Assembly: GCF_964355755.1 (NCBI RefSeq)
Contig: NC_092678.1
Coordinates: 3,426,422 to 3,490,421 of the forward strand
Direction of reading: 5' to 3'
DNA: 64,000 nt
Source of the DNA: Antedon mediterranea
Lineage: Eukaryota > Animalia > Echinodermata
This document shows positions 15,001 through 61,608 of the stretch, in pieces; position 1 is the stretch's first letter, and each line of letters begins with the position of its first letter. The position numbers and the translations under genes are program-made. The notes beneath the pieces are model-generated. The model was not told the origin of the DNA and did not search any database. It worked only from the letters and a program-made list of their open reading frames with translations.

Positions 15001-16133
15001 AATATTTGGGGTTTAATGGTATGGCACCCACCCTGCCAGAGAGAGGTTAAAGGTTCAACTCCTGTCACATGACCTATACTTATGAATTTGAATGTTTTGT
15101 TTAAAATGTAGCAGGGTTTTCATTGTGTGTGCTTATGTATAAAAATATTACAAGACATAATGAATATATAAGTTAAAGTAAATATTTTCTATCTCTCAAC
15201 CAGCATACGGATGCACATCGATTGCTCTTTGCCAAAGAGATTCCAACATATCGCAATCTTGTGGATTCCTTCTACAAGAGTATTCAGAATATGCGGGAAT
15301 TGGATCACATGGAGATGGAAAGACAAATGAAAGAAACATCAAACGTAAGATTCAATATCAATTGAAACAATTTTTAAAGGATAAACAACTTCAACTGGAA
15401 AAATTAACTTAAAAAACACACATTTTTATTTTAAAGATGTAGTGTCCCCAAAAACATGAAAAATGAAGATTAATAAAATCAGACTTTGAAGAGGTTATTT
15501 TGTAATTTTATAAGGTTTATCATTTCCATAGAAACAAAAACAACAATAAAAAAGACAAAATAAATTGTTAACTTCAACCAAAATCACATTTGCTGGCAAC
15601 CAATTTACTATTTTTTTGTTTTAAATTACATTGTTTTCAGGTAAATATTTTTTTTAAAACCAATTTTTGTCAAAGTGTGTAACAATTATGTGACAATAAA
15701 ATAGCATATTCAATAACAATTTTTAAAGAATTATATTTTTTCAGGAGGACAATACATTTTTAACATTTTCTGCTTGTTTTTCCTTTGTAGAAATTTCAAA
15801 GTATCTTTAGTAAAAAGAGTATACTGGACCATTTGTATTCTTATGCTAAGAGTTGCAATACAGAGGTGAGTATAAAGACATTTACTTATTACTTTGTTGT
15901 GACACAAAGATGACCCCTGACACAAAGGTGACCCCTGAATAGGTGTTTTTCTGTATTACATATGTACAGTACAAGCTTACAATAAGAAATAAGAACATTG
16001 CATTCAAATTCGGTGACTAATTAATATTATGATTTGTTTTCAGTTAAGTAAGGCTGTGGAAAATGATGACTCGTGCAGTAGAAGTCGGATCGGGTTCAGA
16101 CTGGAGCAAATTCCTTCTATGATGGGTACATAA
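97..16133 (+). CDS. PLXN: Plexin (semaphorin receptor), 5'-partial, multi-exon: PSI/IPT ectodomain, TM helix, split RasGAP-like domain with RBD
   Basis: GT-AG exons (approx.): 97-256, 762-858, 3133-3244 (PSI CSECVKGWEACRWCVEDNVC), 3923-4030, 4870-4959, 5284-5368, 5632-5795 (PSI DCSRC..CVWC), 6162-6329, 6596-6704, 6994-7129 (IPT PELGIQAGGTTVNING), 7426-7590, 7790-7874, 8341-8595, 8978-9121, 9445-9664 (TM), 9940-10072, 10360-10481, 10645-10709, 11309-11382 and 11601-11667 (VLRR-NEGVTEKLLSNW), 11940-12086, 12346-12499 (RBD VKVLSCDTINQAKEKILD), 13151-13254, 13424-13509, 13593-13693, 13999-14091, 14315-14480, 14825-14972 (RFWVTVINNP), 15204-15344 (LLFAKEIP), 15791-15865, 16044-16133 (stop TAA). 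The Sema domain must lie upstream of the window. Subfamily not assigned. Confidence 0.95.
6362..6515. repeat. 34-bp minisatellite (about 4.5 copies) in a plexin intron
   Basis: gtaatagagtatcccacaatgcaatgttgcactt at 6393, 6427 and 6461. Confidence 0.85.
10968..11282. mobile_element. Long-palindrome repetitive element in a plexin intron
   Basis: About 80-bp arms centred on cgaggcaaagccgag (10968-11140); a degenerate relative lies at about 14665-14800. Confidence 0.7.
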
Positions 16134-18136: not shown

Positions 18137-18533
18137 AACGCTTGGTTCTCACTAGAACGTAACGTAACGCAACCTACGCAACGTAAGAAAATGCCCTTTA
18201 AATAGGGCCTACTTGTGTTTGCCCCCGCTTGCGTGAAATCAAACCGATGTTTGCAGAACTGTTGCGTCGTCGGTTCACATTTGTCTAAAGCTTGGTTCCC
18301 ACTAGAACGTAACGCAAGGACGTAAACGCAACGCAAGCGTTTTAACCAATGACAAGCGAAGTTATAGACAGTTAGCAATCACAAGCGAATAAGCCATCGC
18401 TTGTGATTGGTCAATTCACTTGCGTTGCGTTACGTCCTTGCGTTGCGTCGCTAGTGGGAACCACGCTTACGCAACACAGCACTTTGCGTCAATACGTTAA
18501 TATTGCGTTGCGTCGCTAGTGAGAACCATGCTT
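18137..18533. mobile_element. MITE family B (TIR aagcttggttcccactag): one element with a second nested inside it (18288-18468)
   Basis: Outer ends cttggttctcactag / ctagtgagaaccatg enclose inner ends cttggttcccactag / ctagtgggaaccacg. Confidence 0.85.
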
Positions 18534-18941
18534 AAATAAACGTGGTTGTTTTCTTTCATCAGGCCCGAAAGACAACATTTATATAACGATCATTGTCAAA
18601 TTATCCGAAAAAATTTCTTTCAAAGAATCAAACGATGTAAGATTTGAGAAAACAGGTACTATGTTTATGTAGTCATAATTCTCATAGTGGTTAAGAGGTA
18701 GGCCTATTCTTTACACATGGTGGCCCAATTGATTAATACTTTATTATACTAGGGCTTAACATCAAATAAAAAAGCATTTGTAATATAAAGAACTTTATGA
18801 TACTTTTACAATTTATCAAAATTGTTTATATCTTATACGAGGAATACTTTCCCCTTATTTGGTTACAGCGATGTGAGCTGCCCCTGCCCAGCATTTTTAT
18901 AATGTTGTATTGTAGACGGTCTTCGATGCCTTTTTGAGAAT

Positions 18942-19123
18942 AATGCTTGGTTCCCACTAGCGACGCAACACAAGGACGTAACGCAACGCAAGTGAATTGA
19001 CCAATCACAAGCGATGGCTTATTCGCTTGTGATTGCTAACTGTCTATAACTTCGCTTGTCATTGGTTAAAACGCTTGCGTTGCGTTTACGTCCTTGCGTT
19101 ACGTTCTAGTGGGAACCAAGCTT
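18942..19123. mobile_element. MITE family B copy, inverted relative to 18288-18468
   Basis: Near-identical to the reverse complement of the inner copy. Confidence 0.88.
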
Positions 19124-19313
19124 AAAGCGTTACACGGGCAATTAAGCAATGTAGACAGTAGCCTGATCAAATCTCTATTTTGTTTTACTGTGTACTGAAG
19201 CATAATAATAACCTTCGCTGTTCTATTTTGTAAGAGGTAAAATGGTCACAGTCACACTCCAACACAGTTTATCCTCTACGTCCCTACTGATAAAATAGGA
19301 TAGTCGATGTTGC

Positions 19314-19385: not shown

Positions 19386-22300
19386 ATGAACCGACTTGCA
19401 GTAATTGTCTTGGCTGTGGCAGTTTTTGCTACTCTCGCCGAAGCAAAGAAATTTGCTAAAAAGGAGGAGGAGGTAGGCTTAAGTTCTTATAATTATCTTT
19501 TTCATTACTCACATGAACCATTGTATAGAGCCTATACTTACTGTAATCATCCACAAGGTTGATTACTGATACATTTTATTAATGTTTTCCTTTTTTTGTT
19601 CAGGGCCTCTCGAATGAACACTTGTGTATTGTTGAATGTAAGTAGTAAACTGAATCTAATACCTGTAATAATCATAATGATTTTGATCGCTGTTGAATTT
19701 CATTAATATAAAACTTGCTAAACATCGGAAACATTGCATACAATGAAGGTATTGCAAACGCCGAGATTAATTTATATATGTATATATATAGTAATATTAA
19801 TCAATAAAATATTAAACGTCTATTATTTTAATATATTTCCACAAACAAAACAAGCACAAAGATACAGATACAAAATTGCTTGCTTGTAGAATTAAAACAA
19901 AATAGACACTGAAATTATACAGTATAAAGAATACAGGCACGGTGATACAGGAGTATGCCTATTAACTTTATCTTCCTTCTAATATAAATAATGTCTCTCG
20001 GCACTATATATCCATTTATAGATTTGGGTATATTAGTTAGTTAGTTATCTTTTTGATTATATTATAAGATGATGCCCGTCCATTGGACGGGTAAATACTA
20101 ATAGGCCTATATATTATAATAATGATGATATTGAAAATAATGATGATGTTGAAAATGATGCTGCTGATGACGACGAAGATGGTGATGCTGTAATAAATAC
20201 AAAAACTTAACAAGCAAGTTTACTTTTTATCCAAGGCATGTGTAATGTATTTGACGAAGACAATAACGATTATCCAGTCGATTGTATGCCAAATGCATGT
20301 GAATATTCTGAAACACCTGAAAATTGTTGTAATGAAGATGAAGCCAATGGCTGGTTTTTCTATATTTCTGCTACGGGGGTGTGTTTTGATATCAAATGTC
20401 AAGGAAGTAAGTTTAAACATGAATTGTTCCATGGTTTAAAGATGAATTTACATGAAACTCGAACAAATATATATATATTTTAATTGCTCATACCAAAGAA
20501 TTATTTCTTGATGTGTCTAAAACTGTTTCTTCTCCCAGAAATTAATAGTGTTCACAGCTTTAACCAGTGTTTTGAATAATTTAACGAGTAATGTTTGTTG
20601 TCTTTGTTTTGTTGTTCTCTAGATGCTGCTGGCTGGGAAGAAGCATGTGGTAGGTATTAGGTATTGTTGTCAATAATATTAAAAGTCACGAAAGAAAATT
20701 TACGTCTTAAACGCCCATTAAATGTGCATGCCAGTGTAACTCCATCTATCAGGTTCAATATACATACTCCGAACGCTTATGGAAGTGTATTAGGCCAACG
20801 GTGGGTCATTGCGTTGTTCTCTCATGGCCCCCTCACTCTTTTTTCGACGGAAAACCCCAGAACTTGTTATACGTATTCTGTAGTGTTGTTTATTACTTCG
20901 ATACTGTGTACGTAATAAAAGGTTCTACTTGGCCAAGAGCTATTATTAATCTTCTAAAAAACATTACCAGTAGGCCTATCATTCCATTTGTTTTTTATGA
21001 TGTTGGTGAGAAGAATAGGCCTAATTTAGTAGGAAATAGATATATATATATATATATTTTGATATCGCATAAGCGACCATAACTATATTAATGTACAGCA
21101 ACGCCTACACTAGCAGATTCTCTTCGGGTAGTGTTTTCGGTGATGGGAAATTCCTTCTAAAACATCATCATACCACAACGTAGTCGTGATATGCAAATGG
21201 TTAATTATTGCTGAGGGCCTAAAGCTGAAGATTTACTAAGGTTCATACGAAGTTTTTAGTCGCGTGCAACTCGACTCTACAGCCCACTATGTCAGTCGGT
21301 TGGTCGGTCGGTCGTTAAATTAAGCCTAATACATAACTTGATGGCTTCGGTTATGTAGATCTACAAACCATAGTTAAAGTAAGTTAATATGCATTAGATG
21401 ATGTATTAATGTAAACATGTATGAAACTACGCTGATCATAATTGATGAAATAAAAGTTTTGGAAAAATCACAATAAAAAAAAGCTGAAATTAAATTAAAA
21501 TCATATAACGATGGCCAATAGAGCGTTTTCAAGTATGAAACGTCCGTTATGTCAATTCATTGTGCGGGGATATTGGGACGGGCTTTGCTCATCCTACCTG
21601 AACACAGTTTTGACGGTGCGACATCGTTTGACCTGACCTAGTTACGTCATTGGTCGTCGCAAATCGCAAGGTTTACCTCCTCAATAAGTAATATTATAAA
21701 GATGTTTTCTTTTCAATTAAAATTATATTAGGCCTATTTCATAATGATATTGAGCTTTTCACAAGATGAATATACTGTTTTTATTTTTTAAAGAATGTAG
21801 GAATGACATTGTCAACGGCGCAAATGGTACGTATGCTTTTATTTTTGTTTAATTTTTTTAACATCAAGTATTAATGGTTTTTTGCCAGTGACATGGAGAC
21901 GAGCATGAAAATATTAATACATTAATTCAATTTCAATATTGATATCCGTATCATAAATTTAAAGAAACCTTTTGTTAAACTGATTGATTATATTTACTTG
22001 AAGAGTATATACTTAACATTTTACGGCATCTTATAATATTAAATTTGAGTGTATTGTGACTGGATTTTGTGTGTGTTTTACTGCTATAATAAATATATTT
22101 ATTATTGATTGTTATACTTTTTTAAAGAAGGTTACATTTTCATAACTTCATATTTATTTTTGCTTGTTTTTTTGTTGCTAAAAATAAAGGGAATGAATGC
22201 ATTTCAATGTAAATTAAATGAAAGCTTGTTTATACAACGTAGAATTACAATACTAAAATAAGGCATTCTATGCAATATTAACATTATTATGATTAACATT

Positions 22301-23311
22301 TTCAAATTTCCAGTACAGGGGCAAATTAAGAAGACAACAGAATACATACAGTTATTGTAGCCTAACATAGATTACTCCTCTACATACATAATGCAAACAA
22401 GAGAAATAAACTCTGAATCATGTAGATTAATACATATTGTTATTCATAATATGATAGTTATTGTATTTGTTTAACTTTTTGGAATAAAAGATATCCTCAG
22501 TGCAGGAGATGATGAACTTCAATGTGGAGAAGGACAGGCTGGTGAAGATGAAGCGGGAGAGACTGACGAAGATATTGGTAAGACATTACTTTGTTTAAAA
22601 TAAATCATCATAAATCGCCCATAGATGGACAAACAGAAACAAGGGAGAAGTATTATTCTTTTTCCTTGTTTTTGTTTAAGCTTGGTTCCCACTAGAACGC
22701 AACGCAATAGTGCTGCAAACATCGATGGTTTGATTTCACGCTGGCGGGGGCAAACACAATGATTGGAAGGGCATTTTCTTATGTTGCGTAGATTGCGTTA
22801 CGTTGCGTCGCTAGTGGGAACCACACTTTATACGCATGCGAGGAAGAGGACCTGGTAAGGGTTCCACCTTTAAGCTTGGTTCCCACTAGCGACGCAACGT
22901 ATCGCAATCTACGCAACGTAAGCAAATGCCCTTCTAATAATTGTGTTTGCCTCCGCCTGTGTGAAATCAAACCTGCGATGTTTGCAGCACTATTGCGTCG
23001 TCGGTTCCCACTTGTGATTACGCATTCCATCACTCTGCGTCGATACGTCGCAGCGTTGTGCTCTAGTGGGAGAACCACGCTTTATAGGGTTACAGGAATG
23101 CCTATTATTTAATATTAATTAAATCAATAATATATTAAAATCTACCTTATTATCTGAAATAGATGAGAAGACTGCTGCTACTGCTAAGCGGGTAATGGCC
23201 AAAAAGAAGCTGATGGCTGCTAGACGCAAAGCAATGGCTAGCAAGAAATCGATGGCTAAAGAAAAGAAGCTGAAAGGTTTCATAGAGGCTTTCAAAAAAA
23301 GAAACATCTAA
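19386..23311 (+). CDS. Secreted precursor (about 195 aa): signal peptide, acidic 12-Cys core, basic Lys/Ala/Met-rich C-terminal tail; unknown family
   Basis: Exons 19386-19472 (MNRLAVIVLAVAVFATLAEAKKFAKKEEE), 19604-19637, 20236-20406, 20623-20649, 21794-21826, 22491-22577, 23163-23311 all have AG/GT borders and join in one frame (588 nt including TAA). TATA box about 70 nt upstream. Confidence 0.85.
22678..23082. mobile_element. Two adjacent MITE family B copies (22678-22828, 22872-23082) in the last intron of the first secreted gene
   Basis: aagcttggttcccactag ... ctagtgggaacc termini. Further copies at about 26197-26426 and 40037-40215. Confidence 0.82.
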
Positions 23312-25410: not shown

Positions 25411-26620
25411 AATAAGACGAACATCCTGATTATGGGTTTATTGAATGAAATATAAGATTTTTTTTTATAAAGTCATGATTATACAATTAATGCGAGTATC
25501 GATATAGTTAACTTCAATTATTGAGACATGGAATGAATAAACACCAAATCTACCTTTAACTAAGCTTATAACAAGTTACTATTTGTTGGAATGTGTTGGT
25601 TTATAATTGGTGTACGTTTTGAATGTATAAACACAGAGAAATTAGTATGGTAAATAATCTCTTTTGCTTGATTAATTCCAACAAGGAGTGTGCGTTTTCT
25701 TTAGGCCTACGTTGTTTCTTTTGACAACCACCAGTAAACGGATGCATAAAGTGGTTTATCATGCGTGCTAATATTAAGTGTTTTCAATTTTTCGGTTGAA
25801 ATAGGCCATATGTTGGTATGAATACATTGGAATGTGATTATATTTAGTTAGATAGTAATTTAATTTCGGTCAATTAATTCACAATATCATATCTGACTGT
25901 TTTCATTTGCCACACCTGTAATTTAATATAGGCTAGTGGATCTTGCCCAATCTGACATGAACCATGTATTGAATACTCATACTGGATGAAAACAAGAACA
26001 ATACACGTTTGGAAGAATTAATTTTAACGTTCAAATTTGCCCAAATATGAAAATGTTATGTCGGCCTACCACCCAACTAAATATGTTCTGTATTCAGTGT
26101 GACTCACCCTACACTGTGAAAACAAGCGTCTTTAAAAATGGACGCGTCACTGAAAATAAGAAAATACTATAAACCTATTACCTTGATTCCTACTAAAGCT
26201 TGGTTCCCACTAGAAACGCAACGTAAGTGCGTAACGCAACGTAAATTATTTGACCAATCACAAGCAATGAACATTCAAACTGTCGCTTGTCATTGGTCCA
26301 CTCGCAAGGACGTAAAGCGCAGCGCAAGGAATTTGACTAACCACGACGTAATGTAATTGAGTGTAAACTTAACTTAACTTGTGCTTACGTCATTGTGTTG
26401 CGTCTAACAAGTGGGGGAACCAGCTTAAATGTGTTCATGGCACTGTCTGTAACGTGGAGTACCAAGTTGTCTACACTCAACATACTTGGATTTCTTTTAT
26501 GTTAACTTGTTTACAGTGACAAACGTAAACATTTTTTATGTATATTATACAATTAATACGGTATATAATCTAGTATATGTATTAAAATACGGCGCTGATT
26601 CGCCTGTACAGCGTATGCTT

Positions 26621-26743: not shown

Positions 26744-27159
26744 TAGAATTCAAGTGTTAGAGAGCCTTTTTTTTTTTTCGTTTTATTTTTAAATTTTTGG
26801 AACTGTCATGTTAAATACTATGGGAAACGTTCACATAACTGTTGGTAATATAAGTTATTCTTTTGTTTGAAATTCTGAAAGAAATCTTCCGGATAATTTA
26901 AACTAAAAATATTGTTATTGAAATCACTACTTGTAGATAACAATGATGCAGCAGATTATTACATTTTATACATGGGTAAACAGGCAAGTTTAGTTTGTAA
27001 CGTAGACATTAATAACTCAATAAACATACCTATTCAATAATAGAATCACCTGACAAGAAACATATATAATATACGTGCGTAAGAAGTTTCAACGCTTTAG
27101 CATATTTTTACTTCTTGATATCAATAAGCAGACGCTTAGTGAAACAATAAAAAGTAAAG

Positions 27160-30100
27160 ATGAACCGAGTCGCAGTCGTTATCTTGGCTGTGGCAGTGAT
27201 TGCCACACTCATCGAAGCAAGACCAAATCTTGCTAACAAGTTAAAGGTGAGTTATCCTTCTATTTTTACCGTTAGTGGGAATATCTTTTCTGTCTTTTTT
27301 ATTTGTTTGTTTGTATTATGCATTACATCGTGATGTAAATCTAAACATTGATAATGTTACTCTATCATCTAAACAAATATCCTTTTCTCGCTAGCTACCT
27401 GCTGATTGTTAAAAGCGCTTTATTGATATGACTACATCAATAACATACTCGCATTTCTAGTGTATTGTATTAAATCATCAAAGTAATATTGATACTAAAC
27501 ATACAAAGTAAAATACGTGATTTCCGGATTTTGAAAAAACTAACGGGAAGCTTCGATTATATTCCGTACTATAATAGTTTGGTTCATCGAGTGCACTCTG
27601 TAGAATTTGTGTTTTGTGTTTAATATACACCGAGTGTAACCGATGGAGGAACTCTCACGCAAAGAAACATTACAAACTAGGAAGGTATAATGAGGCATTC
27701 TATATACAGGTGTAAACTGTCATGCCACTCAAAGAAAACCCAAATTTGTGACTGCTTTTCTTTCGGGAGGGTATACTGTATTTACAAAAAGATTTTATAA
27801 AATAAAGCAAACTATTTATGCTTATATTTTTTGTTTTCAGAGTAAACGTGGAAAGAAATTACTAGAAAGTAAGTTTTAACCAAAATGGCACCATTATCTT
27901 AAAATTAATGTTCATTAAACAACCTATTAATATTTAAATAAATCACAAGACTCTCTAATGGTAAAAATGTAACATCTGTATTTAGAAAGAAAATGTATAC
28001 TTGTCTCATTTTGAGGCATTAGGTTCTGTCTCATGACATAAATCAAGATTTACCAATGCCCTGTTGACTGTAAAACAAACAACTTAACAATTTCTACGAT
28101 GAAATTAATTGATAAAACATTTTTAAATAAAAGGTTTATAAAAGATTCCAATACAAATACAACAAATAATGATGAAAAATATTATTTTAATAAGCTACCT
28201 TCTTGGAAATATTTTGGAGGCCACTAGAAATAAAATCACTAAATTATGTAACAACTATAGTAAAAATCTAAACATTTACATATTATTAAAAAAGGAATTG
28301 ACAATTTTTTTCTCAGTAATAAAGACCCCATTTTCTTTGATCTTAAATCCAATGATGTCTATCTATTAAATTCTGAGAACTGTGACGCCTCTAACGTCGA
28401 GGAAACTTCGCGACATCTAAAGATAAGAATCCATAAGAGTAGGGATTAAAATACACATATAGTACAAAGATATTAATTAGTAATAATAGAGAATTGTCTA
28501 GATCACAAAATACTTACCTGTATAAAAATGTAAGACCGTATTTCATTGCAGTGATGATGTTATTCGGCGTAACAACGAAACATTTTTGCTAACATTTTGT
28601 CATAACTCAAGTTTTCTTTTAATGTTGCTATGCTTTCGAAAGTTCGGAAACATTATTTTACATTACTTTAAACACTTCGGTGTCAATCAAAGACTTACAA
28701 ATGTTGGAAAAGCTCTTGAAAATCAAGTAAAAGCAGCTGATGTAAAATACATTCAAATAAATATTGTTATTGTTTTTTTTATAGTTTCTCAGAGAAAGAA
28801 AGAATGTAAGTATACAAAAATAGTTACCTTCAATTCAGTTTGCATTGAAGAATGCACCAATAATGATTTTCAAAAGCAGCATAAAACTGAATTAGTTAAA
28901 GACATATACAATCTTGTTATATTATTAATTGTTAATATTTTTTAATTTGTTATAATAATAATTATTAATTTCGCTAAACTAAACAATGAATTTTCTTCAC
29001 GTTTCTTGAATGCTGAACTATAAATTATTCTGATACTTAATGATTTGATTATTTTTTTTAAAACTTAAAGTAGCCGAGAAAAAAGATGTTTGTAAGTATA
29101 TCTTCTTTTTATTTATTGTTCTTATACAATCCGCAAAAATCAGAATAATAAACAATAATAAGCTTTATTTATTCATGGACACTTAACTCAACTAAAAGTT
29201 GTTTTTCAGTATGTAATAGAATGGTATACATCAACTTTTTGCGCTCGTATTTTAACGTACGTGCATGTTGCGTTTGCGTGGATTTTTAAAATTTAAATGT
29301 CTGTGAAATTTTATTTATCACAAAGGTCATCTATAATTCATGACGAAATTAATTTTAGCTTGAAAGTAAAGTTATTTGTGATTATTTTTATTTTGATTCT
29401 TTTAAGAATGTTTCCAACCTAGGCCTAGTTGTTTAGTATTTTTGAAGTTTATAATTTAAAAAAAAAAAATGTATGTGACATTTAAAGGATGATAAGGCTA
29501 ATTTAAAATAAAACGTGCTTTTTATGGTGTTAAATATAGGCTAAACATTGATTGTTTGGTGTCGTTTGTTAACACACTTTTATAGTGAATAAAAGAATAA
29601 ATAATATTATCAAAGAACTTATGATATTATCTACTTGCATGGGCAAGTGATCTGTTATTGTATTGTCAAATTCTATCTTAGCATTGGATCTACTGTATTA
29701 TACTGATTATTTTTACTGGAAGTTTTTTTAGACGGCCCTTGACAAATGTTCGAATTTCCACGCCACAAGCCGTGAAACCCCCAGGACTTATGACACAAAT
29801 TATGATAACATGTTTTGATTATGAAATTTAAAATTAAATTTGATTATGATTATTTTCACAGGGAGCGATGACGACTTCGATCTTGGTAAGTCTTTAACAC
29901 ATTTCCACAATGTTTATTTAAATCTATATGAAGTAGGGTAAAAGAATGCACAATAATAAAGTTACTTTAAAATAAAAACGTGTTTTATATTATTTCCAAA
30001 GATGACAAAAAATAAGTTTATTAACTCAAATTTCATAGTGATAATTAATTATAATAATTAACCTGCAAGTGATGCTACCGTATTGTTGAATAGATGAAAA

Positions 30101-33100
30101 TTATAAATATTGTGGAATGATGAATTTTATTAAAGGTAAACGTTCTTCCTAGATGGCGTATGGTATAACAATCACAAACAATTTCATGATAAATAAATTA
30201 GGCATAAACATTAAAAAAATATATTGTTAATAATAACTTACTTCGTATACCATATCCATAGAGTTATTTCTTTATCATCAAACTCATTCCAAAATTTTGG
30301 GATATTGTTGGATAGTGACATTTAAAGGATGATAAGGCTAATTTAAAATAAAACGTGCTTTTTATGGTGTTAAATATAGGCTAAACATTGATTGTTTGGT
30401 GTCGTTTGTTAACACACTTTTATAGTGAATAAAAGAATAAATAATATTATCAAAGAACTTATGATATTATCTACTTGCATGGGCAAGTGATCTGTTATTG
30501 TATTGTCAAATTCTATCTTAGCATTGGATCTACTGTATTATACTGATTATTTTTACTGGAAGTTTTTTTAGACGGCCCTTGACAAATGTTCGAATTTCCA
30601 CGCCACAAGCCGTGAAACCCCCAGGACTTATGACACAAATTATGATAACATGTTTTGATTATGAAATTTAAAATTAAATTTGATTATGATTATTTTCACA
30701 GGGAGCAATGAAGACTTCGATCTTGGTAAGTCTTTAACACATTTCCACAATGTTTATTTAAATCTATATGAAGTAGGGTAAAAGAATGCACAATAATAAA
30801 GTTACTTTAAAATAAAAACGTGTTTTATATTATTTCCAAAGATGACAAAAAATAAGTTTATTAACTCAAATTTCATAGTGATAATTAATTATAATAATTA
30901 ACCTGCAAGTGATGCTACCGTATTGTTGAATAGATGAAAATTATAAATATTGTGGAATGATGAATTTTATTAAAGGTAAACGTTCTTCCTAGATGGCGTA
31001 TGGTATAACAATCACAAACAATTTCATGATAAATAAATTAGGCATAAACATTAAAAAAATATATTGTTAATAATAACTTACTTCGTATACCATATCCATA
31101 GAGTTATTTCTTTATCATCAAACTCATTCCAAAATTTTGGGATATTGTTGGATAGTGACATTTAAAGGATGATAAGGCTAATTTAAAATAAAACGTGCTT
31201 TTTATGGTGTTAAATATAGGCTAAACATTGATTGTTTGGTGTCGTTTGTTAACACACTTTTATAGTGAATAAAAGAATAAATAATATTATCAAAGAACTT
31301 ATGATATTATCTACTTGCATGGGCAAGTGATCTGTTATTGTATTGTCAAATTCTATCTTAGCATTGGATCTACTGTATTATACTGATTATTTTTACTGGA
31401 AGTTTTTTTAGACGGCCCTTGACAAATGTTCGAATTTCCACGCCACAAGCCGTGAAACCCCCAGGACTTATGACACAAATTATGATAACATGTTTTGATT
31501 ATGAAATTTAAAATTAAATTTGATTATGATTATTTTCACAGGGAGCGATGACGACTTCGATCTTGGTAAGTCTTTAACACATTTCCACAATGTTTATTTA
31601 AATCTATATGAAGTAGGGTAAAAGAATGCACAATAATAAAGTTACTTTAAAATAAAAACGTGTTTTATATTATTTCCAAAGATGACAAAAAATAAGTTTA
31701 TTAACTCAAATTTCATAGTGATAATTAATTATAATAATTAACCTGCAAGTGATGCTACCGTATTGTTGAATAGATGAAAATTATAAATATTGTGGAATGA
31801 TGAATTTTATTAAAGGTAAACGTTCTTCCTAGATGGCGTATGGTATAACAATCACAAACAATTTCATGATAAATAAATTAGGCATAAACATTAAAAAAAT
31901 ATATTGTTAATAATAACTTACTTCGTATACCATATCCATAGAGTTATTTCTTTATCATCAAACTCATTCCAAAATTTTGGGATATTGTTGGATAACGTTT
32001 TTAAATTTAAACTTTTCAATATTTTCTGGTATTATGCGGTAATTAATATTTAATTGTGTTATCGACAAAACAACATTTTTTCTATGCTTATACCTTTTAA
32101 ATAAAAAATCCAATACTGTTCAATCGAATTAAAAGATGGGCCATATATAACGATTATACAATAATTATAAAACGTAATGATATAAGTTAATTTGAATTGT
32201 TTATGATTATTTTCACAGGATCGTTGTCCGATATTCCCGGTAAGTCAGATTTTTATTGTATCTAAATTAGGTCTATCTATACAACCACAACAGCGACATT
32301 TAGCAAAGTTTATGTCAAATAACTGCCAGACACATTCTTTGTAAAATGATCGGGTTAACGATACATTCACCCACGGAAATGGAAGAAACTATGATTACTT
32401 TCACATATTTTCCGTCACATATGTCATAACGTAGCTTAAGCAAAAAAACAAAAAAAATGTTAGTGTACCATTTTTATGCATATTAGGATATACTGATAAT
32501 AAAATTATTTATTTAGGTTCTTTCAAAGATGTTTAAACTGTCAATAACTTACTAAGATTAGTTGTATGTACTTAATTGTGTTAAACTACTGTGGAGTAAC
32601 TATGCGTCAGGGAGTTAATTTGTAAATACATTGAGAACAAGTTGTTCTTCGGTTGGACGCAAACCCACGACCTCCAGTGTTCTCAATGTACTTAGTATGT
32701 ATTTCAATGTTTATTGAGAGACCTCTAATAAATTTATCAGCATCTTTCAATTTGTTTAATAATAATAATATCATGGATTTATATAGCGATATATATATAA
32801 ACCAAATCGAAGTAAGGGGATACGCATTCGTCGCTAACCAGGGATCGGTCTAATTGAACTCCGGTTTAAAGGACCTAGATCTAAATTAGAATAACGATCG
32901 TTTTGAGGCAAATCAGTAAAGTAACAGTAAAACTGTACATGGAGTTAATTTTTATTAATTATTTAAATAAAGACTACTGTTGCACACATAATTGTAGCAC
33001 GCAGACGGCTATGTTTGTTGTAATATTCAATTGACTTTTCAGTGACGTGCATCCATTACATTATAATCGTGTTATGTTGTTCAATACGACCATTACTTAT

Positions 33101-33803
33101 TATCATTTTCTCTCTATGTTATTATGTTATGTAATACATCTATCGAATCAAAATTTGTTAAACCATTGAGAAAAACTATTTGTTTTTTCTCCATGGTAAA
33201 CGCAACGTGAACTTATGGACAAGATGAGTTTGCATATTGTTTACAGTGACAATAAATCCATATACTTGAAAAGCATCAATAGATTTTTAAAAGATAGCAA
33301 AACTGATTAGTTTGAGACATGCGTATACAATCTTTCGTTATAGGCAGCATATATTGCTAATTTTATTTTTGTTTGATTAATCACTGTTAATTTATATATA
33401 TACATTATCTTCACGTTTTAAAAGCTGAAATTTACATTATATTTTTACGTAATAAAAGTCATTAATATAATAATCTGATAAAATTGGTTTATGATTTTAC
33501 AGAAAATGCTTTGAGGCAGTCGCGAAGTCAGCCATTGTATTTAAAAAAAAAATTTTTGTGCCACTGTCGCCAATAATTAACAACGTTCGATTAAGTATAT
33601 AATTTTCCATTACTTATGAAACCGCCGGCGTGTGAATGTAGATTTTACTATTTATTTAAAAAATAACTACTGTTTGTTTGTTCGTTAGAAAATTCCCATT
33701 TATAAAATAGCAACTGTTAAACCACCATGTGATAAAGTTAATTAAAATAAGAAATTTCAGGGCCGTGGATGAACGTAATGTAGGCAAAAAATGAAATGTA
33801 TCC

Positions 33804-33835
<32 letters not shown>

Positions 33836-34544
33836 GTATTAGTGTTATTATTATTATTATTATTATTGAGGGGCACATTCATTGAAATAAGAAAATGAAT
33901 TGAAAGTGTTAAAAGTTAATTTGTAATAAATGTTTTTTATATTACTTTCACAGGTAAGTATTTCAGTATGTCCATACTGTAGTGTAAGCAACATGAAATG
34001 AAATGTAACTATCTCTTATGCCTATTATAGATTTTTAAAAAGTTTTAAAATGTCGTGTAGCCTATTAATATTATTAATATTATTAAGGGACCTATTCATT
34101 GAAATAAAAAATTATTGAAAGTCATAAAAGTTAATTTGTAATAAATGTTGTTTATATTACTTTCACAGGTGAGCAGTCGTACTCGTGTAAGTATTCCACG
34201 CATTTCCATACTGTAGTTTAAGCAATACGAAATGATATGTTACTATCGCTTATGCCTATTATAGATAAAAAAAAGAAGTTTGAAACGCAATGAAATGTTG
34301 GGTATCCTATTATTATTATTATTATTATTATTATTCTGGGGCCTATTCATTGAAATAAAAAATGAATTGAAAGTGATAAAAGTTAATTAACTATACCAAC
34401 TGAACAGCTAGGCTCCTCTTATATTATTTAATTGATTAATTCCTGTCACCCATTGATGTTTCTTCGTTTCGTATTGTTTATTTGACCAGCATATTTTAAT
34501 AGATCATTTCATTGAAAATGAATATGACACATAATACTCATAGC

Positions 34545-34611
<67 letters not shown>

Positions 34612-37600
34612 CGAGGGGCCTAACAATTATGGATGAATCTTCGAACTGTGATTGTGATTGGTGAATTCACTTACACGCATGCTAAAGCTTTAAAGTTTTA
34701 CCGAAAAATTACACAATAATTTATAATAATCAGAAAATCAAATAATCGTCCAATCAAATTACAGATTAGTCATGCGTCATAATAAATAGATACAATTGTT
34801 TTCATGTTGTATATTGATCTGTCAACTGATGAGTAAACAATAATGAAATATCATTAGATCGTTAATAATACGACTTGGGGCAAGCTTAACGCAAATGAGC
34901 CAGTTGAACCCCTCATGTTAAATAAAAACATAAAAAAGGAAAACAAAAGTAATTAATAAAATAAATTTAAAAAATGTAATTTCTGACTTTGTACTATTCC
35001 ATCATTTGTTCTTGAAAATGGATCCATTTTTTTATTATATTGTAGGCCTAAATGTTTTGTATTATTATATCTATGAAATCAAAATCTGATAAAATTGGTT
35101 TATGATTTTACAAAAAATACTTTGAGGCAGTCGTGAAAACATTTTTGTGGCACTTTCGCGAATAATTACAACAAATGAGTTTCTATTACTTATCAAACCG
35201 GCGCCATGTGAATGCATTTTGCTATTTATTTAAAAAATATTAAATTTATTAATATATGTAATACTATTTTTGGTTCGTTAGAAAATTCCCCTTTGTTTTA
35301 AAATTTTTATTATCGTTTTGATAATGATTTACCTTCAATAATTCAGGTTGCATATTGTTTACAGTGAAAGTAAATCCAGATACTTGAAAAGCATCAATAT
35401 GATTTTGAAAAGCTAGCAAAACTGATTTGTCTTGGACATGCGTATATAATCTTTCATTAGAGCGGCATAAAGCCTACTGCTAATTTTATTTTTATTTAAT
35501 TAATAATTTTAATTACCAGTTTCACTGTTAAAAAACATTTATATACATTGTCTTCACGTTTTTGAAAGCTGAAATTGACGGTACATTATATTTTTACGTA
35601 ATAAAAAAGAGTCATTAATATATATTTTTTACATACAGTAGCCGAGGACAAGAAGACCTGTAAGTATAGTCTATTTTATTGTGGCTTTATATGAACATTA
35701 AAACTTTGTTTGAATGTAAAATTTTTGTAGGCCTAACATTTTTAACTAAATTTTGAACTAAATATATATAATTTAACTTTCACATGGTCGTCATCCTGTT
35801 CTTAGTATTTTAAGTCATGTTTTAAGGGTCTTTCATACCTATTTCGGCACAGTTCCGGTAAGTATTTCACGCATGTCCATACTGTAATGTAAGCAATACA
35901 AATGAAATGTAACTATCTCGTATGCCTAGTAGTATAGATAAGTTTAAAAAGTAATGTCGAGTATCCTGTTATTATTAAGGGGCCTATTCATTGAAATAGT
36001 AAATGAATTGAAAGTGATAAAAGTTAATTTGTAATAAATGTTGTTTATATTCTTTTCACAGTGGGCTTGGTGTGGTTGTGTAAGTATTTCACACATTTCC
36101 ATACTGTAGAGTAAGCAATACGAAATGTAGGCTAACTATCTCTTATGCCTATTATAGATAACAAAGTTTAAGACGTAATGTCGAGTATCCTATTATTATT
36201 GAGGGGCATATTCATTGAAATAGAAAATGAATTGAAAGTGATAAAAGTTAATTTGTAATCGATTTTGTTTATATTACTTTCACAGTTGACTCGTACTTTT
36301 CGTCATGGTTGTGTAAGTATTTCACGCATTTTAATACTGTAGTGTAAGCAATATGAAATGAAATGTAACTATCTCTTAGTATAGATAAAAAAGTTTAAAA
36401 AGTAATTTCGAGTATCCTATTATTATTGAGGGGCCTATTCATTGAAATAGAAAATTAATTGAAAGTGTTAAAAGTTAATTTGTAATAAATGTTTTTTATA
36501 TTACTTTCACAGTAATACTGTAGTGTAAGCAATATGAAATGTTATTGTTACTATCTCGTATGCCTATTATAGATAAAAAAAGTTTGAAACGAAATGAAAT
36601 GTTGAGTATCCTATTATTATTATTATTATTATTGAGGGGCCTATTCATTGAAATAAAAAAATATTCAAAGTGATATGTAACTATCTCATATGCCTATTAT
36701 AGATAAAAGCGTACAATGATTTAAAATAAAATGGGGTTTATATTATTTTCATAATAATTAATTTATGGAATTCGGACTAATGAGATTATAATTAAATTAT
36801 TAACCTGTATGGGAGATTGATCCATATTGTCAAATTATAACTTAGCAATTGTTACCGATTATTTTTTACTAACGGTTCCATTTCTTACGAGGCCTTTTGA
36901 TAATTGTTTTGGCTTCTGCCACTGTAACCTATGAAATCTCCTGAATTTTCTACACAAATAAACTTGTGAAAAATATCATAACATTTTTGATAAGGAATAA
37001 TTTGAAATAAGTTGTTTTATGATTTTTTTCCACAGCGGAACAGCCTCCTGTCCGTAAGTTTTTAACACAACAAAAGTGACATTTTATCATGGTTCTAAAA
37101 TAACGTAAAATGAAAATGGGGTTTATTTTATTTTCATAGAATAATTAATTTATGAAATTCGGCCTAATGAGATATAATTAAATTATTAACAACTTGCATA
37201 GGCGATTGATCCATATTGTCAAATTATAACTTAGCAATTGTTACCGATTATTTTTTACTAACGGTTCCCTTTCTTACGGGGCCTTTTGATAATTGTTTTG
37301 GCTTCTGCCACTGTAACCTATGAAATCTCCTGAATTTTCTACACAAATAAACTTGTGAAAAATATCATAACATTTTTGATAAGGAATAATTTGAAATAAG
37401 TTGTTTTATGATTTTTTTCACAGCGGAACAGCCTCCTGTCCGTAAGTTTTTAACACAACAAAAGTGACATTTTACCATGGTTCTAAAATGAACGTACAAT
37501 GAAAATGGGGTTTACATTATTTTCATAGAATAATTAATTTATGGAATTCGGCCTAATGAGATATAATTAAATTATTAACAACCTGCATGGGCGATTGATC

Positions 37601-40600
37601 CCTATTGTCAAATTATAACTTAGCAATTGTTACCGATTATTTGTTACTAACGGTTCCCTTTCTTACGGGGCCTTTTGATACTTGTTTTGGCTTGTGCCAC
37701 TGTAACCTATGAAATCCCCTGAATTTTCTACACAAATGAACTTGTGAAAAATATCATAACATTTTAGATATGGAATAATTTGAAATAAGTTGTTTTATGA
37801 TTTTTTCCACAGCGGAACAGCCTCCTGGCGGTAAGTTTTTAACACAACAAAAGTGACATTTTACAATGCTTCTAAAATAACGTACAATGATTTAAAACAA
37901 AATAGGGTTTATATTATTTTCATAGAATAATTAATTTATGGAATTCGGCCTAATGAGATATAATTAAATTATTAACAACCTGGGCGAGTGATCCATATTG
38001 TCAAATTATAACTTAGTAATTGTTACCGATTACTTTTTACTAACGGTTCCCTTTCTTATGGGCCCTTTGATAATTGTTTTGGGTCTATCGAATAAAAACC
38101 TGTTAAACCATGGAAGACAAAAATCTTATGATTGATGAATTCACTTACGCGCAAGCTCAAGTTTTATCGAAAAATGACATAATAATTAATAACTATTATT
38201 GTTGTATTAAAAAAAAAAAGGTTTTTAAACAAAGTTATAATAATACTATATTATCATAATATTAATATTTTCTTTTTACAGTTCCGAACAAGAGGAATGA
38301 TGGAGGTAGGTTCACCGCGTTTATAAATATAAACTATTTTTCTTCCATGTTATTATGTAATACATCTATCGATTAAAAATCTGTTAAACCATTGAAGTAA
38401 AACATATTTTACTCCAGTATTTTTTACTGTCCTAGTCAAACATTAACGGAACTTATTTAAACTTCAGAAAATTAAAAAAAAGTAACAGATTAATCATTCA
38501 CGATAAATATATACTATTATTTTCATGTTGTATAATTGTTCTGTCAACTGATAATGTAAACAATAATGAAATATCATTAGTTTGTCAATACTCATGTAAT
38601 ATTTATCATAATTCATAATCAGTAAAATGATAATAATTCATTTTGAATTTTTTTTATATACGAGAAAACTTAAACTGCATAAGGCATTATGGTAAAATGA
38701 TAATAATTCATTTTGAATTTTCTTTATATACGAGAAAACTTAAACTGTATGAGGCGTATAATAATGATAATTATTACACTTTTGTTTACAGGTTTTGTTT
38801 ACGAAGGCAGCGGCGATGGTAAGTTGACGTTTTTACTGTTCTTCTGTTCATGAACCGCTTCCTAACTTATTTTCTGAAACATATTTTATCAACTGATAAA
38901 AAAATATAATAAATTACTTATAAATGTGATTTTTTAAATGTTGTGGGGAAAGCATCATTATGTTTGAATATAATTAATAATACAGGCTGAATAAATTAAA
39001 ATAAAATAAATTTGATTATATTGTAAACAAGTTATTAGAAAAATCACAGATTTATTACTTTAACTATATACAAACTTAAAACAGATTTTAAAGAAACCTT
39101 ATTATTAATAAATCCAATTACAAGATGCGCATGCGTCATATAATATATACTGTTATAATCACTTAACAATTACAAGATTGCTAATGTAAGTGTAATTCAA
39201 TATATTTTCGTAATACCATTACAGTATTAAGTTTTACTATAATAAATAATACAGGTTTAGTACTGTAATAATAATTTATTAAAAATCAAATCAATAAAAT
39301 ATAAAATAAATTGTACCTGCAATGTATGTATTATCATATCATGTTATATATCTTTTTATATACGAGAAACTTAAACTGCACGACGCATAATAATAATTAT
39401 TAAACTGTTGTTTACGAAAGCAGCAGTTGCTGTTCTTCTTTTCATTATTCCGGCTTAGTCCTGTTACTAACAGTACTAACAGTAAATTTATAATTAATAC
39501 ATTTAAAATATAACACAATTATGCTTGAACTTGAAACACAGAAATGTGTGGATACAAAATTATCTTGTAATATGTTGTATTATTACCATTACCTATTGAA
39601 TAAATCTTATTGAACTTTAGAACATTGAACCAATACCTCATACCTCATTGCTAATGTAATATAATATAAATAAAATATTTTTGTAATAGTATCATTATAT
39701 TTGACATAATTACTAGTTCAGTATAGTAATAATAATTTTTTATTGTTCTCATAAAAAAATTAAATATACCTGAAATTGATGTATTATTAATAGCATGTTA
39801 TTTTAATTATAATTCTTTCACACACTATTTTTTTTTTTACAGTTTTTGTTGATGAAGGTAAGTTTTAAAACAGAATTTATCCCCAGCTTCATGAACAGTT
39901 TTTGTTTTGAATGAGTTATACGATTGAAATAACAAACAAAATGGTATTTGGCACTGTTTATGCACTGATTCTGCTTACTGTAGGCTTATTTCACGCTTGG
40001 TCGCAATGCAAAGACGTAAGCGCGCCGCAAGTAATTAAGCGTGGTACCCACTAGCGACGCAACGCAAGGACGTAACGCAATGCAAGTGAATTGACCAATC
40101 ACAAGCGATGGCTTATTCGCTTGTCATTGCTAACTGTCTATAACTTCGCTTGTCATTGGTTAAAACGCTTGCGTTGCGTTTACGTCCTTGCATTACGTTC
40201 TAGTGGGAACCAAGCTTTAAGGGATGGATATTGTTTGCATGTGACTTTTATTTATCCATAAGAAAGAATTACCAAGTATAAAAACATCAATATGACAGAA
40301 TGAAATATGAACATAAAGGAAGGCGAGAAAAACTACATGCCTATCGAGCTCAACTTCCAAAATTAAAAAAAAAAGAAATGACATTTCTTTTAGAATATAT
40401 CAAGCAAATCATGTAAGAATTAATTAATATCAAAGTGCAGTAGTTATTGAGTATAATGCTTTATTTTTTTTAACTTTTTAGATGTTCGAGATGGTTCTGG
40501 CATGGGTAAGTTAAAAACTTTATTAATACTATAAAATGTTTATTGTAGTTTTTTTTGTCTTGTGTGAGTTCATCTCACGTTTATTTAAATTCTCATTGAT

Positions 40601-42964
40601 GAATATATTATATACATATAGGTAAGTTTTATTGTAGTTAGTGATAATTCATTATTAATCAAAGTAAATCGTAAGTACGAATATTTAGCAATTTGTACGC
40701 CCTGCATCCACTCCACATCCAGTAGGCTTATAAACAGTTCCATTAAACTGTTTTAAACTTTATTGATATCTATCATGTTTATAATTAGGCCTAAAATAAT
40801 TGTGTGTGTTAAAAGCTTTAACAAAATCAACAAAATCAAATTACAAGCTGCGCCGTATAGATACTATATAATAGTCATGTTTTCTTGTAATTTATTTTTT
40901 GCTGGTGGTATGGTACTATACTTTTACTTCTAAAATATACACTTTTTAAATTATTATTACCAATAAAAAAGAGAAGTGGGTGTTTCTTTTTCAGGAAGTT
41001 GACATATATGATTTATCTGATAATGATACAGTCAAATAATAATGTTAATAATTGTGTTGAATTGACATTATCATAATATAACCATGTTATTTGTTTTTTA
41101 TTATAGGTGATATGGAGGAGAGGGATGATGGTAGGTTTATGTTTTTTTTATTACAGTATATAGTTTTAGACGGTTTTGGGGTTTTTTCTTCTTATAAATA
41201 CTATTTGTTATCATGTTGTAAAATTGCTCTTTAACTGATAAGGTAAACAAGAATAAAATATTATTAGTTTGTCAATACTAATATTTACCATAATTATTCA
41301 ATTAAAAATCAATTTTATTTCATTTCCACATAGTTTTTGTATACTAATTTGTAGATGCAGTTTAAATAATGTAGTTGACTAATGTTTCATAAAGTAGTAA
41401 TGATTTTGAGAGTTTATTATTTTCGTATTTTAACAAAGAAAACAGATTGAAAACTATTGATATCAAATATATTTAATGTTTAAATTTAGAAAAGATTGGT
41501 TTGGTATGGGCTCGATAAGTTGATTTAAAACAAATACGAAGCGCTTTTTTCTGTAATTTAAAAAGATGGTCCAACTTTGTAGTTACCGTAGTAGTCCATG
41601 GCCATTGGAAATGTTTATTTGTAACAGTTCCCCATAACAAGTTACAATACGACAAATACGGAAAGAACCATGGTATTATAATGAAAAAAGAATATTTGTT
41701 GTTAAACTATATTTTTCTCATTGCTCCAATATTTCTTGATTTTTAGTTAATTGCTGTTTCAAGTTAAATTGGGTGTCAATTGTGATTCTAAGAAAATTTA
41801 AATGTTGTTTTTCTTTAATTAAAAGATTATCAATTTTGATTTTAAATTATTATTCCCTCGGACGTGTCTTCTGTCACTTAAAAAATATAAACGTTTGTTT
41901 ACAGGCAACGTTTCCACTGGCGACGACGCGGATAGTCACGGCAAGTTTGATTTTTTTAACTGTTTTTCTTTTCCCGAGCCACTTATGAACTTCTGAAATA
42001 TAAATTGTATTTTACCAAAAATAACTGTAATTTTCAATATATTTTCGCGATTGTATATTTAGGTTTGAATAATATTATAACTTAAAAACCCAAGTAAATC
42101 CAACTTCCAATTTATATTCTGTATTTTATTTACTCATTTGTTTTTGAGAATGGTTCCATGATGGTTCCGAAACGTCGATCTTTTTTCATAATTCCGGTTC
42201 AGTTCTGTAATAATAATTTTGAATTGTTGATTTGTATGCCCACCTCCACCAACAACAGGTTTCAATTTTTGCAAGTTAAATTTTACCTTAAATTGTTTTT
42301 ATTACTTGGGTAAAATGTTATATATATTATCAAAATATACAAACAGAAACAGTTCAATGAACATACTTGGCCGAGATTAAATGTTAGTTGCCATGTGCGT
42401 CATAATAAATTAATATTGACCAATCACAAACTGAACTGTTGCTTGTGATTCGTCAACTCATATTGTGTTTTGCCTACCTCATTGAGTTGCGTCCAGTTAT
42501 ATGTAAGCGTTAACAGCTCATCAATTAAAAAAATGTTGCTTGTAATTTGTGTCAAATATGACAAAAAAACATCGTGAAAAATAAAATTGTCGGTAACTTA
42601 TATTTTCATTTCAAATTAAAAATAATCCTTCGATTTATTTTGAATATTACAAAATTATAATTTTAAACATCTTTAATAAACAATTAAGTTTATTAGGACA
42701 TCGATTGATTTAGATTGGGTGGAAAGTGTAATATTGTCACATTATTGTAAGAGGTTACGTTATTTATTTGTATACTTATACTTGATATTAATAGGCAATG
42801 TAATAGGCAACAAGAAGACAAAGAAGGTTGCTCGTATGTTGGCGGCTAAGAAGATGATGGCGGCTAAGAAGATGATGGCGGCCAAAAAGGCGTTGGCTTC
42901 AAAGAACTTGCTGAAAGAGTTGGCTAAGAAGCGAGCCATGACCAAAGCCCTCAAGAAAAACTAA
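27160..42964 (+). CDS. Microexon-built secreted protein (about 235 aa if all exons are used), paralog of the 19386-23311 gene
   Basis: Exon 1 27160-27246 (MNRVAVVILAVAVIATLIEARPNLANKLK) and exon 2 27841-27868. Then 19 phase-1 exons, all multiples of 3: 28785-28805, 29071-29091, 29862-29885, 30702-30725, 31542-31565, 32219-32239, 34169-34186, 35639-35659, 36062-36079, 36286-36312, 37036-37053, 37424-37441, 37813-37830, 38282-38305, 38792-38818, 39843-39857, 40482-40505, 41107-41130, 41905-41940 (GC donor). Last exon 42795-42964 (KKVARMLAAKKMMAAKKMMAAKK...). The full join has no stop codon. Confidence 0.82.
29475..31994 (+). repeat. Three tandem 840-bp copies, each carrying one 24-nt microexon
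   Basis: Line-by-line identity at period 840; the only differences I found are at 30707 and 30712. Confidence 0.95.
33780..36705 (+). repeat. Family of about 225-bp intronic units (ggggcctattcattgaaat...ttactttcacag [exon] gtaagtatttcac...) in two clusters, with interspersed (ATT)n microsatellites
   Basis: Units recur near 33870, 34087, 34338, 35978, 36202, 36429 and 36635; (ATT)n tracts at about 33805, 34311 and 34547-34610. Confidence 0.85.
36710..38085 (+). repeat. About 3.5 tandem copies of an approximately 388-bp unit carrying the 18-nt EQPP(V/G) microexon
   Basis: Exons at 37036, 37424 and 37813 (spacings 388 and 389); the flanks are nearly identical. Confidence 0.92.
40037..40215. 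mobile_element. MITE family B copy in an intron of the microexon gene
   Basis: aagcgtggtacccactagcgacgc ... ctagtgggaaccaagctt. Confidence 0.85.
41400..41760 (-). mobile_element. Degenerate LINE (L2/CR1-group) reverse-transcriptase C-terminal fragment
   Basis: PYLSYCNLLWG...LFKLQKKALRIC..YRAHTKPIFSK is typical of the end of non-LTR ORF2; it is frameshifted. Confidence 0.75.
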
Positions 42965-48751: not shown

Positions 48752-49655
48752 TGCCTCTTGTTCATCCTTTTTCTTTTCATTCCATGTTTTTGATGGTCTG
48801 CCTCCTCTTCTTTTTTTTTCATTCCATGTTTTTGATGATCTGCCACCTCCTTCTTTTCTTTTCATTCCATGTTTTTGATGGTCTGCCTCCTCTTCTTTTC
48901 TTTTCATTCTATGTTTTTGATGGTCTGCCTCCTCTTCTTTTCTTTTCATTCCATGTTTTTCATGGTCTGCCTCCTCTTCTTTTCTTTTCATTCCATGTTT
49001 TTCATGGTCTGCCTCCTCTTCTTTTCTTTTCATTCCATGTTTTTGATGGTCTGCCTCCTCTTCTTTTCTTTTCATTCCATGTTTTTGATGGTCTGCCTCC
49101 TCTTCTTTTCTTTTCATTCCATGTTTTTGATGGTCTGCCTTCTCTTCTTTTATTTTCATTCCATGTTTTTCATGGTCTGCCTCCTCTTCTTTTCTTTTCA
49201 TTCCATGTTTTTCATGGTCTGCCTCCTCTTCTTTTCTTTTCATTCCATGTTTTTGATGGTCTGCCTCCTCTTCTTTTCTTTTCATTCCAAGTTTTTCATG
49301 GTCTGCCTCCTCTTCTTTTCTTTTCATTCTATGTTTTTGATAGTTTGCCTCTTGTTCATCCCTTTTCTTTTCATTCCATGTTTTTCATCGTCTGCCTCCT
49401 CTTCATCCCTTTTCTTTTCATTCAATGTGTTTCATAGTCTGCTAGGCCCCTTCATTCCTTTTCTTGTCATTCCATCTTTTTCATGGTCTGCCTCTCCTTG
49501 TTCATTCCTTTTTTTTTCATTCCATGTTTTTCATGGTCTGCCAACCTCTTCTACATTCCTTTTCCTTTCATTCCATATTTTTCATGGTCTGCCTCTCCTT
49601 TGTCCATTTTCTTTTCATTCCAAGTTTGTTATGGCCTGCCTCTTCTTCGTCCCTT
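48752..49655. repeat. 42-bp minisatellite, about 20 copies with degenerate ends
   Basis: Unit ttttcattccatgtttttgatggtctgcctcctcttcttttc; it generates the MKRKEEEADHQKHG and PPLLFFSFHVFDGL ORFs. Confidence 0.95.
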
Positions 49656-61428: not shown

Positions 61429-61608
61429 CCATTGCAAACTCAAAATATGACAACATAGTCTCATCTTGTCATCGAAATTACCATTCCGATACCAATCTTG
61501 TGTTGAGTGGTCACTATACGTTTCCTTAATAGACCAGACCACATTTATACCATCTCATTCAACCAATTTTTGTCTCTACAAATATTATTACCTTATTGGG
61601 TGCTGTAC

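Follow-up and report, generated by a model that had tools for sequence, protein, structure and literature searches.

A 64,000-nucleotide stretch of the genome of the crinoid Antedon mediterranea (NCBI RefSeq assembly GCF_964355755.1, contig NC_092678.1, positions 3,426,422 to 3,490,421; the whole stretch is called the window below) contains an unannotated gene, here named gene B, that is predicted to consist largely of very short exons. One of these, 24 nt long, lies with its intron in an 840-nt unit present three times head to tail, and the only differences among the three copies fall inside the exon. On balance, we lean toward the view that a micro-exon and its intron were truly duplicated in tandem, probably recently, and that the exon-only differences likely arose from selection for new variants. 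The two substitutions taken alone are thin evidence; their setting in a crinoid micro-exon family matters more.

An 840-nt unit whose copies differ only in the exon

The three copies occupy 29475..30314, 30315..31154, and 31155..31994 (forward strand, as for every feature of gene B given below). Copies 1 and 3 are identical (840/840), and a comparison of the sequence with itself at a lag of 840 breaks only at 29867/29872 and 30707/30712. Copy 2 has G>A at 30707 (GAT>AAT, D>N) and C>A at 30712 (GAC>GAA, D>E), while the 816 intronic nt of each copy show 0 differences. The initial annotation had described an 840-bp triplication with two differences, both nonsynonymous and both within the exon, and the alignment of the copies bears this out. 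Each exon is 24 nt long and phase 1; micro-exon 5 (29862..29885) and the predicted micro-exon 7 (31542..31565) encode SDDDFDL, and the predicted variant, micro-exon 6 (30702..30725), encodes SNEDFDL and sits between a ttttcacag acceptor and a gtaagt donor. The triplicated-exon pattern occurs exactly three times in the window, and no microsatellite spacer was found at the unit junctions.

Under uniform mutation the chance that both differences land in the exon is 8e-4, rising to 5e-3 if CpG bases mutate 10 times faster, to 0.01 if they mutate 20 times faster, and to 0.029 if the two differences are one event, all of these being post hoc values with no correction for the scan that found the case. 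The earlier judgment that such a location is unlikely by chance therefore survives even the heavier CpG weighting. That both changes are nonsynonymous is correct but adds little weight, because 60 of the 72 single changes possible in the exon (83%) would be nonsynonymous as well.

Read contigs support a genuine array

Contigs from four of the eight listed sequencing runs, plus run X5, were compared with the window over 26900-30360 and 27080-29200 (X3, X4, and X7 were left out), so that copies 2 and 3 and exons 6 to 22 lie outside the comparison. Runs X1 and X2 come from one sample, which holds 91-95% of the stretch's words. In both, the unit assembles as one contig with exactly the unit's ends (840 nt in X1), and the X2 contig carries 30 extra letters, as expected of a head-to-tail junction. 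Its depth relative to single-copy contigs is 2.8-3.6x in X1 and 3.9-4.6x in X2, a rough measure that gives no copy number by itself and fits three to five copies.

Contig depth (about 3-4x) and contig ends thus support a real tandem array, in keeping with the initial annotation's position that this is not a simple assembly duplication. An artefact, in which the assembler concatenated alleles or consensus errors crept into copy 2, would account for the absence of the copy-2 exon from the X1 and X2 contigs, and we nonetheless consider it very improbable. Besides the depth and the contig ends at the unit borders, two alleles diverged as much as the introns of another individual (run X8, below) would be identical over 816 nt with a probability of about 0.0015, although this becomes 0.09-0.2 if allele divergence were 0.2-0.3%. 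Furthermore, X8 and a related organism share the A seen at 30712, which is therefore a real allele state and not likely an error.

A predicted micro-exon gene, spliced in another individual

The splice-site model of gene B has 22 exons running from an ATG at 27160 to a stop at 42964, open for 235 residues: an 87-nt exon, a 28-nt exon, 19 symmetric phase-1 exons of 15-36 nt, and a last exon of 170 nt. Exon 1 (27160..27246; 87 nt, phase 0) encodes a predicted signal peptide with a basic start, recognized by eye from Met-Asn-Arg, a hydrophobic run, and an Ala site, and common to the two relatives treated below, gene A and PCNP14. Exon 2 (27841..27868; 28 nt) sets phase 1 and is followed by micro-exons 3 (28785..28805) and 4 (29071..29091), both of 21 nt. 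Downstream of the triplication come a predicted 21-nt micro-exon (32219..32239), whose sequence around the acceptor is similar to that of the triplicated exon, two further arrays described below, and six predicted symmetric micro-exons starting at 38282, 38792, 39843, 40482, 41107, and 41905 (within 38282..41940), of which the one at 41905 has a GC donor. The last exon (42795..42964) encodes a Lys/Ala/Met-rich basic tail and the stop, with an AATAAA at 42991.

These 14.1 kb of the forward strand hold 20 strong short-exon candidates, where the rate in the other 114 kb would predict 1.9; the count includes duplicated copies that are not independent. Candidate lengths are multiples of three in 18 of 20 cases in the gene B region and in 4 of 15 elsewhere. 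Exons of at most 36 nt supply 451 of 708 coding nt (64%, with the 28-nt exon 2 included). Because every internal exon is phase 1-1, duplication, loss, or skipping would keep the frame, and of 210 ordered exon junctions just two introduce a stop. In both (28805 or 29091 to 32219), all three triplicated exons are skipped into 32219, which gives TGA. Five candidate exons were kept out of the model: 33503-33526 for a weak donor, 35853 for an unclear frame, 36513 for a stop, and 39984 and 40394 for lengths that are not multiples of three.

Splicing evidence comes from run X8, which represents another individual under the same species label; that it is RNA is a program's guess, supported by three GT..AG joints. 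A 472-nt X8 contig has three joints with GT..AG ends, linking exon 1 to 2, 2 to 3, and 3 to 4, and continues after exon 4 with a 24-nt exon encoding SDEDFNL, so exons 1-5 are spliced in frame in this individual, with exons 3, 4, and 5 consecutive. The 24-nt piece is thus an exon, as the initial annotation had proposed. After exon 5 the contig has seven more letters, for which exon 41107 is the best fit (1 mismatch) and its acceptor the only downstream one within one mismatch; the length fits this reading, if weakly (253/259 nt). The contig would then reflect either a transcript that skips 14 modelled exons or an allele that is shorter. Beside this one X8 contig, no second splice isoform was seen.

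Gene B most likely serves as a frame-safe cassette to which tandem duplication of exon plus intron, probably by unequal crossing-over, adds modules, so that an acidic middle would vary between a fixed signal peptide and a fixed basic tail.

The likely ancestral form of the exon

A related organism, organism B (run X6), was used as an outgroup. There, a 1534-nt contig of single-copy depth runs through the unit a single time, so that the unit looks, and likely is, single-copy. Relative to the window, organism B differs by 32 substitutions over about 606 nt, two of them being the A at 29872 and the A at 29879 that X8 also carries; its letter at 29867 was taken from the absence of that position among the rows listed. 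From these comparisons, SDEDFNL is likely the ancestral state of the exon. If so, N would have become D in all three copies, E would have become D in copies 1 and 3 (the Glu codon of copy 2 being the one found in X8 and organism B), and D would have become N in copy 2. This haplotype would then have acquired three replacements in 24 nt, and the differences between copies would have arisen on separate branches, while the introns of the triplication are likely too young to differ. A single multinucleotide mutation was considered and rejected, as the outgroup splits the two changes.

A comparison between individuals points in the same direction. Exon 5 differs between X8 and the window at 2 of 24 letters, coding exons 1-4 at 0 of 157 (p=0.017 versus exon 5), and intronic sequence at 4 of 455 (p=0.032 versus exon 5), the intronic contigs having a depth of 2-3.

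As a separate observation, the segment 29316-29709, within which the left border of the unit falls, is 392 nt long here and is replaced by 13 letters in organism B.

Older arrays in the same gene

Two further arrays allow the comparison of exon and intron to be repeated. An exon-plus-intron unit of about 227 bp forms a family at 33846..36675, with predicted exons at 34169-34186, 36062-36079, and 36286-36312, exon-less copies at 33954 and 36513, and an unrelated predicted exon (35639-35659) within its span. With the best single in-frame gap, its exons differ at 11/18, 8/18, and 6/18 positions, and its introns, outside the splice signals, at 16/159, 21/158, and 18/161 (10-13%), giving Fisher p values of 2e-6, 0.003, and 0.019. 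A 389-bp unit is repeated 3.5 times at 36728..38082, with predicted 18-nt exons at 37036, 37424, and 37813, the first two of which are identical despite an intron divergence of 3%.

The gene also holds dead copies, namely a zero-length exon at 33954, a deleted exon at 36513, and lost acceptors near 35110 and 39400. In the 33954 copy the donor directly follows the acceptor, making it a possible recursive splice site, and in the 36513 copy both exon and donor are deleted. The weak-donor candidate at 33503-33526, which is 24 nt long, has a copy with a lost acceptor at 35083-35137, and exon 38792 has a decayed copy at about 39400. Three arrays together with dead copies indicate that this gene gains and loses exons by tandem duplication. 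The arrays are of three ages, with intron divergences of 0%, 3-6%, and 10-13%, and so amount to a time series within one gene, in which one can ask whether exons outrun introns through selection, conversion, or mutation bias.

These data also bear on the other two processes that the initial annotation had offered beside diversifying selection. The first is long-standing homogenization of the introns of old copies by gene conversion, with selection preserving the exon versions, as described for the tandem repeats of a 27-nt exon plus 1-kb intron in the schistosome SmPoMuc genes (PMC2576457, in the parts used here). To arrive at the X-Y-X order of our copies, either conversion or crossing over with an X-X allele is required, and homogenization could explain the 227-bp array. 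It is not favored, however: with a unit that looks single-copy in organism B, copies that are old and long homogenized are hard to accommodate, X8 splices one exon of the ancestral type, and introns of the 227- and 389-bp arrays have diverged by 3-13%, so homogenization is not strong in gene B. We judge this account improbable.

The second is a mutational process aimed at exons, such as RNA-templated conversion or repair bounded by splice sites, that rewrites micro-exons and spares introns. In its favor, changes end at exon borders, the zero-length exon at 33954 is precise, and near-random exon sequence lies between 60-nt flanks that are 85-93% identical. The zero-length exon could, though, be explained by slippage between the donor and the GT.AG with which a 34169-like exon begins, the identity of the first two 389-bp exons despite 3% intron divergence is not what such a process would leave, and no machinery was seen. 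It ranks as quite improbable.

Weighing selection against a neutral account

Of the three earlier proposals, selection for new exon variants is the best, and the 227-bp array backs it independently, but a number of observations count against it. The initial annotation had taken in neither the CpG context, nor the 22-exon micro-exon gene of a crinoid secreted family around the triplication, nor the array without an exon excess. The variable sites total only three, and the counts are small; each site belongs to a CpG dinucleotide in the copy-1 sequence, and in five array pairs of the window CpG sites are the faster-diverging ones by 1.4-6x. A synonymous rate is not measurable in 24 nt. None of the runs showed the A at 30707; the X1 and X2 contigs have the copy-1 exon only, and because contigs drop variants, this base is unconfirmed. 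Against organism B, the exon difference of 2/24 is not significantly above that of the intron (30/582; p=0.37), and the comparison with X8 depends on a run whose kind is a guess and on shallow intronic contigs. The X8 contig leaves exon 5 for neither the second copy nor exon 32219, and exons 6-21 are predictions without RNA support here. The 227-bp "exons" could therefore be unused and drifting, and the pairs within that array are not independent. Finally, the 389-bp array has no excess of exon differences (0/18, 2/18, and 2/18 versus 3-6%; p 0.24-1).

Several of these points feed a neutral account in which the young copies, being redundant, were released from constraint and the exon, GC-rich within an AT-rich intron, changed at its methylated CpGs, with chance doing the rest. 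Of the unit's 14 CpGs, three belong to the exon, and all three vary. The exon states common to X8 and organism B suggest that the exon was constrained before it was duplicated, and the case was chosen post hoc. Against this, the 20x CpG weighting still leaves p=0.01, and once the changes are polarized by the outgroup, two of the three generate a CpG instead of removing it. Moreover, lost constraint cannot push the exon rate above that of the intron, yet divergence in the 227-bp exons is 3-6x that in their introns. We regard the neutral account as unlikely, though less so than the other alternatives. Should selection be the cause, the exon changes could have come from new mutation or from short gene conversion out of selectively diversified alleles.

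Comparison with known micro-exon and repeat systems

The micro-exon gene (MEG) design has so far been described mainly in parasitic flatworms, and statements on known systems here draw on parts of the papers cited. MEGs appear restricted to platyhelminths and evolve fast (PMC4350168). As predicted for gene B, schistosome and tapeworm MEGs combine a signal peptide with a long run of symmetric exons of at most 36 nt (PMC4350168, PMC4699917, PMC7653826) and show exon duplication, tandem paralogues, and fast protein change (sources including 10.1101/2023.06.21.545858). In our model, 19 of 22 exons, all consecutive, fall under the operational MEG rule (PMC7653826), and the 64% of coding sequence in short exons agrees with the description of symmetric 6-36-nt exons making up most of the coding sequence (PMC4350168, PMC4699917). 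Gene B differs in its free-living deuterostome host, its conserved basic tail exon, and multiple skipping isoforms that are only putative. DeMarco 2010 reportedly used a 75% coding cut for MEGs, which gene B would miss.

In SmPoMuc of Schistosoma mansoni, a 27-nt exon plus introns forms repeats of about 1 kb with >93% identity whose exons differ, and copy-number differences between individuals have been reported (PMC2576457). The likeness to gene B lies in a short exon (27 versus 24 nt) repeated in tandem with introns that are more alike than the exons. SmPoMuc differs in having up to 20 units that are >93% identical across genes and chromosomes, GA microsatellites between units, ribozymes, and a mucin product, whereas gene B has 3-4 young units, no spacer, a unit of which organism B likely has just one, and, within a single gene, several arrays that are unrelated to each other. 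No search suggested homology to SmPoMuc, and no direct test of it was made. Modular spider silk genes likewise repeat exon plus intron in tandem, with introns more homogenized, but their repeats are large structural units under purifying selection rather than micro-exons (via PMC2576457).

No link by descent between gene B and the schistosome families is suggested, given a crinoid host, a neighboring paralogue that matches only itself among 1.84 billion representatives, and a last exon with no match at E<=10 among the candidates compared; gene B likely works like a MEG by convergence. A literature search found no report of an echinoderm micro-exon gene, most subscription papers lying outside its coverage. 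If the convergence holds, a MEG in a free-living deuterostome would make the design a general one that annotation has missed. There is already a gap of this kind in the window, where the neighboring gene A has a RefSeq protein and gene B was not found in protein searches. A bolder and more doubtful possibility is that crinoids evolved their own schistosome-style system of micro-exon diversification, in which a secreted family keeps its signal and basic tail constant while exon birth, death, and skipping and rapid exon-only substitution reshape its acidic middle, with differences between individuals. Such behavior would fit a deuterostome effector in immunity, allorecognition, or gamete recognition, and the triplication would show the first step of exon divergence under way.

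Relatives and the predicted product

Gene B is homologous to gene A and to PCNP14 of the crinoid Anneissia japonica (XP_033113992.1). Gene A (19386..23311, forward strand), a tandem paralogue 4 kb upstream with 7 exons and a Cys-rich middle, was modelled in the same way, and the model is identical letter for letter to the RefSeq protein XP_071960554.1 of A. mediterranea, which therefore checks the modelling. The two genes share 15/29 residues in exon 1 and 18/39 in the Lys/Ala tail. Gene A has the same signal exon and basic tail with a 12-cysteine middle. Among 1.84 billion representatives, gene A found only itself; its atlas model is poor (predicted local distance difference test score, pLDDT, 0.41), and no usable feature match was obtained in the atlas.

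PCNP14 shares 15 of the first 22 residues with gene B, counted by eye, together with a predicted signal peptide, an 87-nt phase-0 exon 1, phase-1 symmetric internal exons in tandem (including three 45-nt tandem exons of its own), and a basic last exon that opens Gly-Asn-Val and has a Lys/Ala tail. It differs in having 6 exons versus 22, and the middles give no convincing alignment. The PCNPs are called unverified by their authors, who list no Antedon sequence for PCNP14 and, in the parts consulted, do not discuss micro-exons (PMC9793003). We rejected the label of neuropeptide precursor for genes A and B, as the SGPNG-amide proposed for PCNP14 is absent from both, and their many dibasic sites simply reflect Lys-rich ends. 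The finding suggests that PCNP14 is itself a member of a fast-evolving crinoid family of secreted proteins and not a neuropeptide precursor.

Net charge along the mature chain of gene B runs +8, -28, +18. We suggest, tentatively, a secreted, largely disordered charge-block protein (basic/acidic/basic) serving surface defence or recognition, not a classical neuropeptide precursor. An amphipathic cationic antimicrobial tail was rejected, the helical hydrophobic moment being 0.06-0.27 in all seven windows of the last exon. Exons 38792 and 40482 contain two acidic Ser-Gly motifs, which we take to resemble glycosaminoglycan attachment sites. The gene B protein was not found in the protein collection searched, and its last exon, compared with 667 longer candidates and 92 of similar length, had no match at E<=10. 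In a Pfam search of 11 pieces, none of the four internal or last exons of genes A and B that were included hit a family, and one exon 1 only had a weak match.

Around and inside genes A and B lie palindromic elements resembling miniature inverted-repeat transposable elements (18286-18469, 18941-19124, 40036-40219, 22702-22998, and 26194-26269), three copies of which are 96-98% identical.

Other features of the window

A multi-exon gene at about 760-16050 (forward strand) is, as we take it by eye, plexin-like; Pfam searches with two of its exons returned no plexin family. An open frame of 223 codons at 57100-57771 (forward strand) had no Pfam match. Tandem arrays of a 42-bp unit (20 copies, 48769-49648) and a 46-bp unit (15 copies, 60722-61429) occur farther downstream, and a Kazal-domain exon lies at 61612-61860 on the reverse strand (Pfam E 9e-12).

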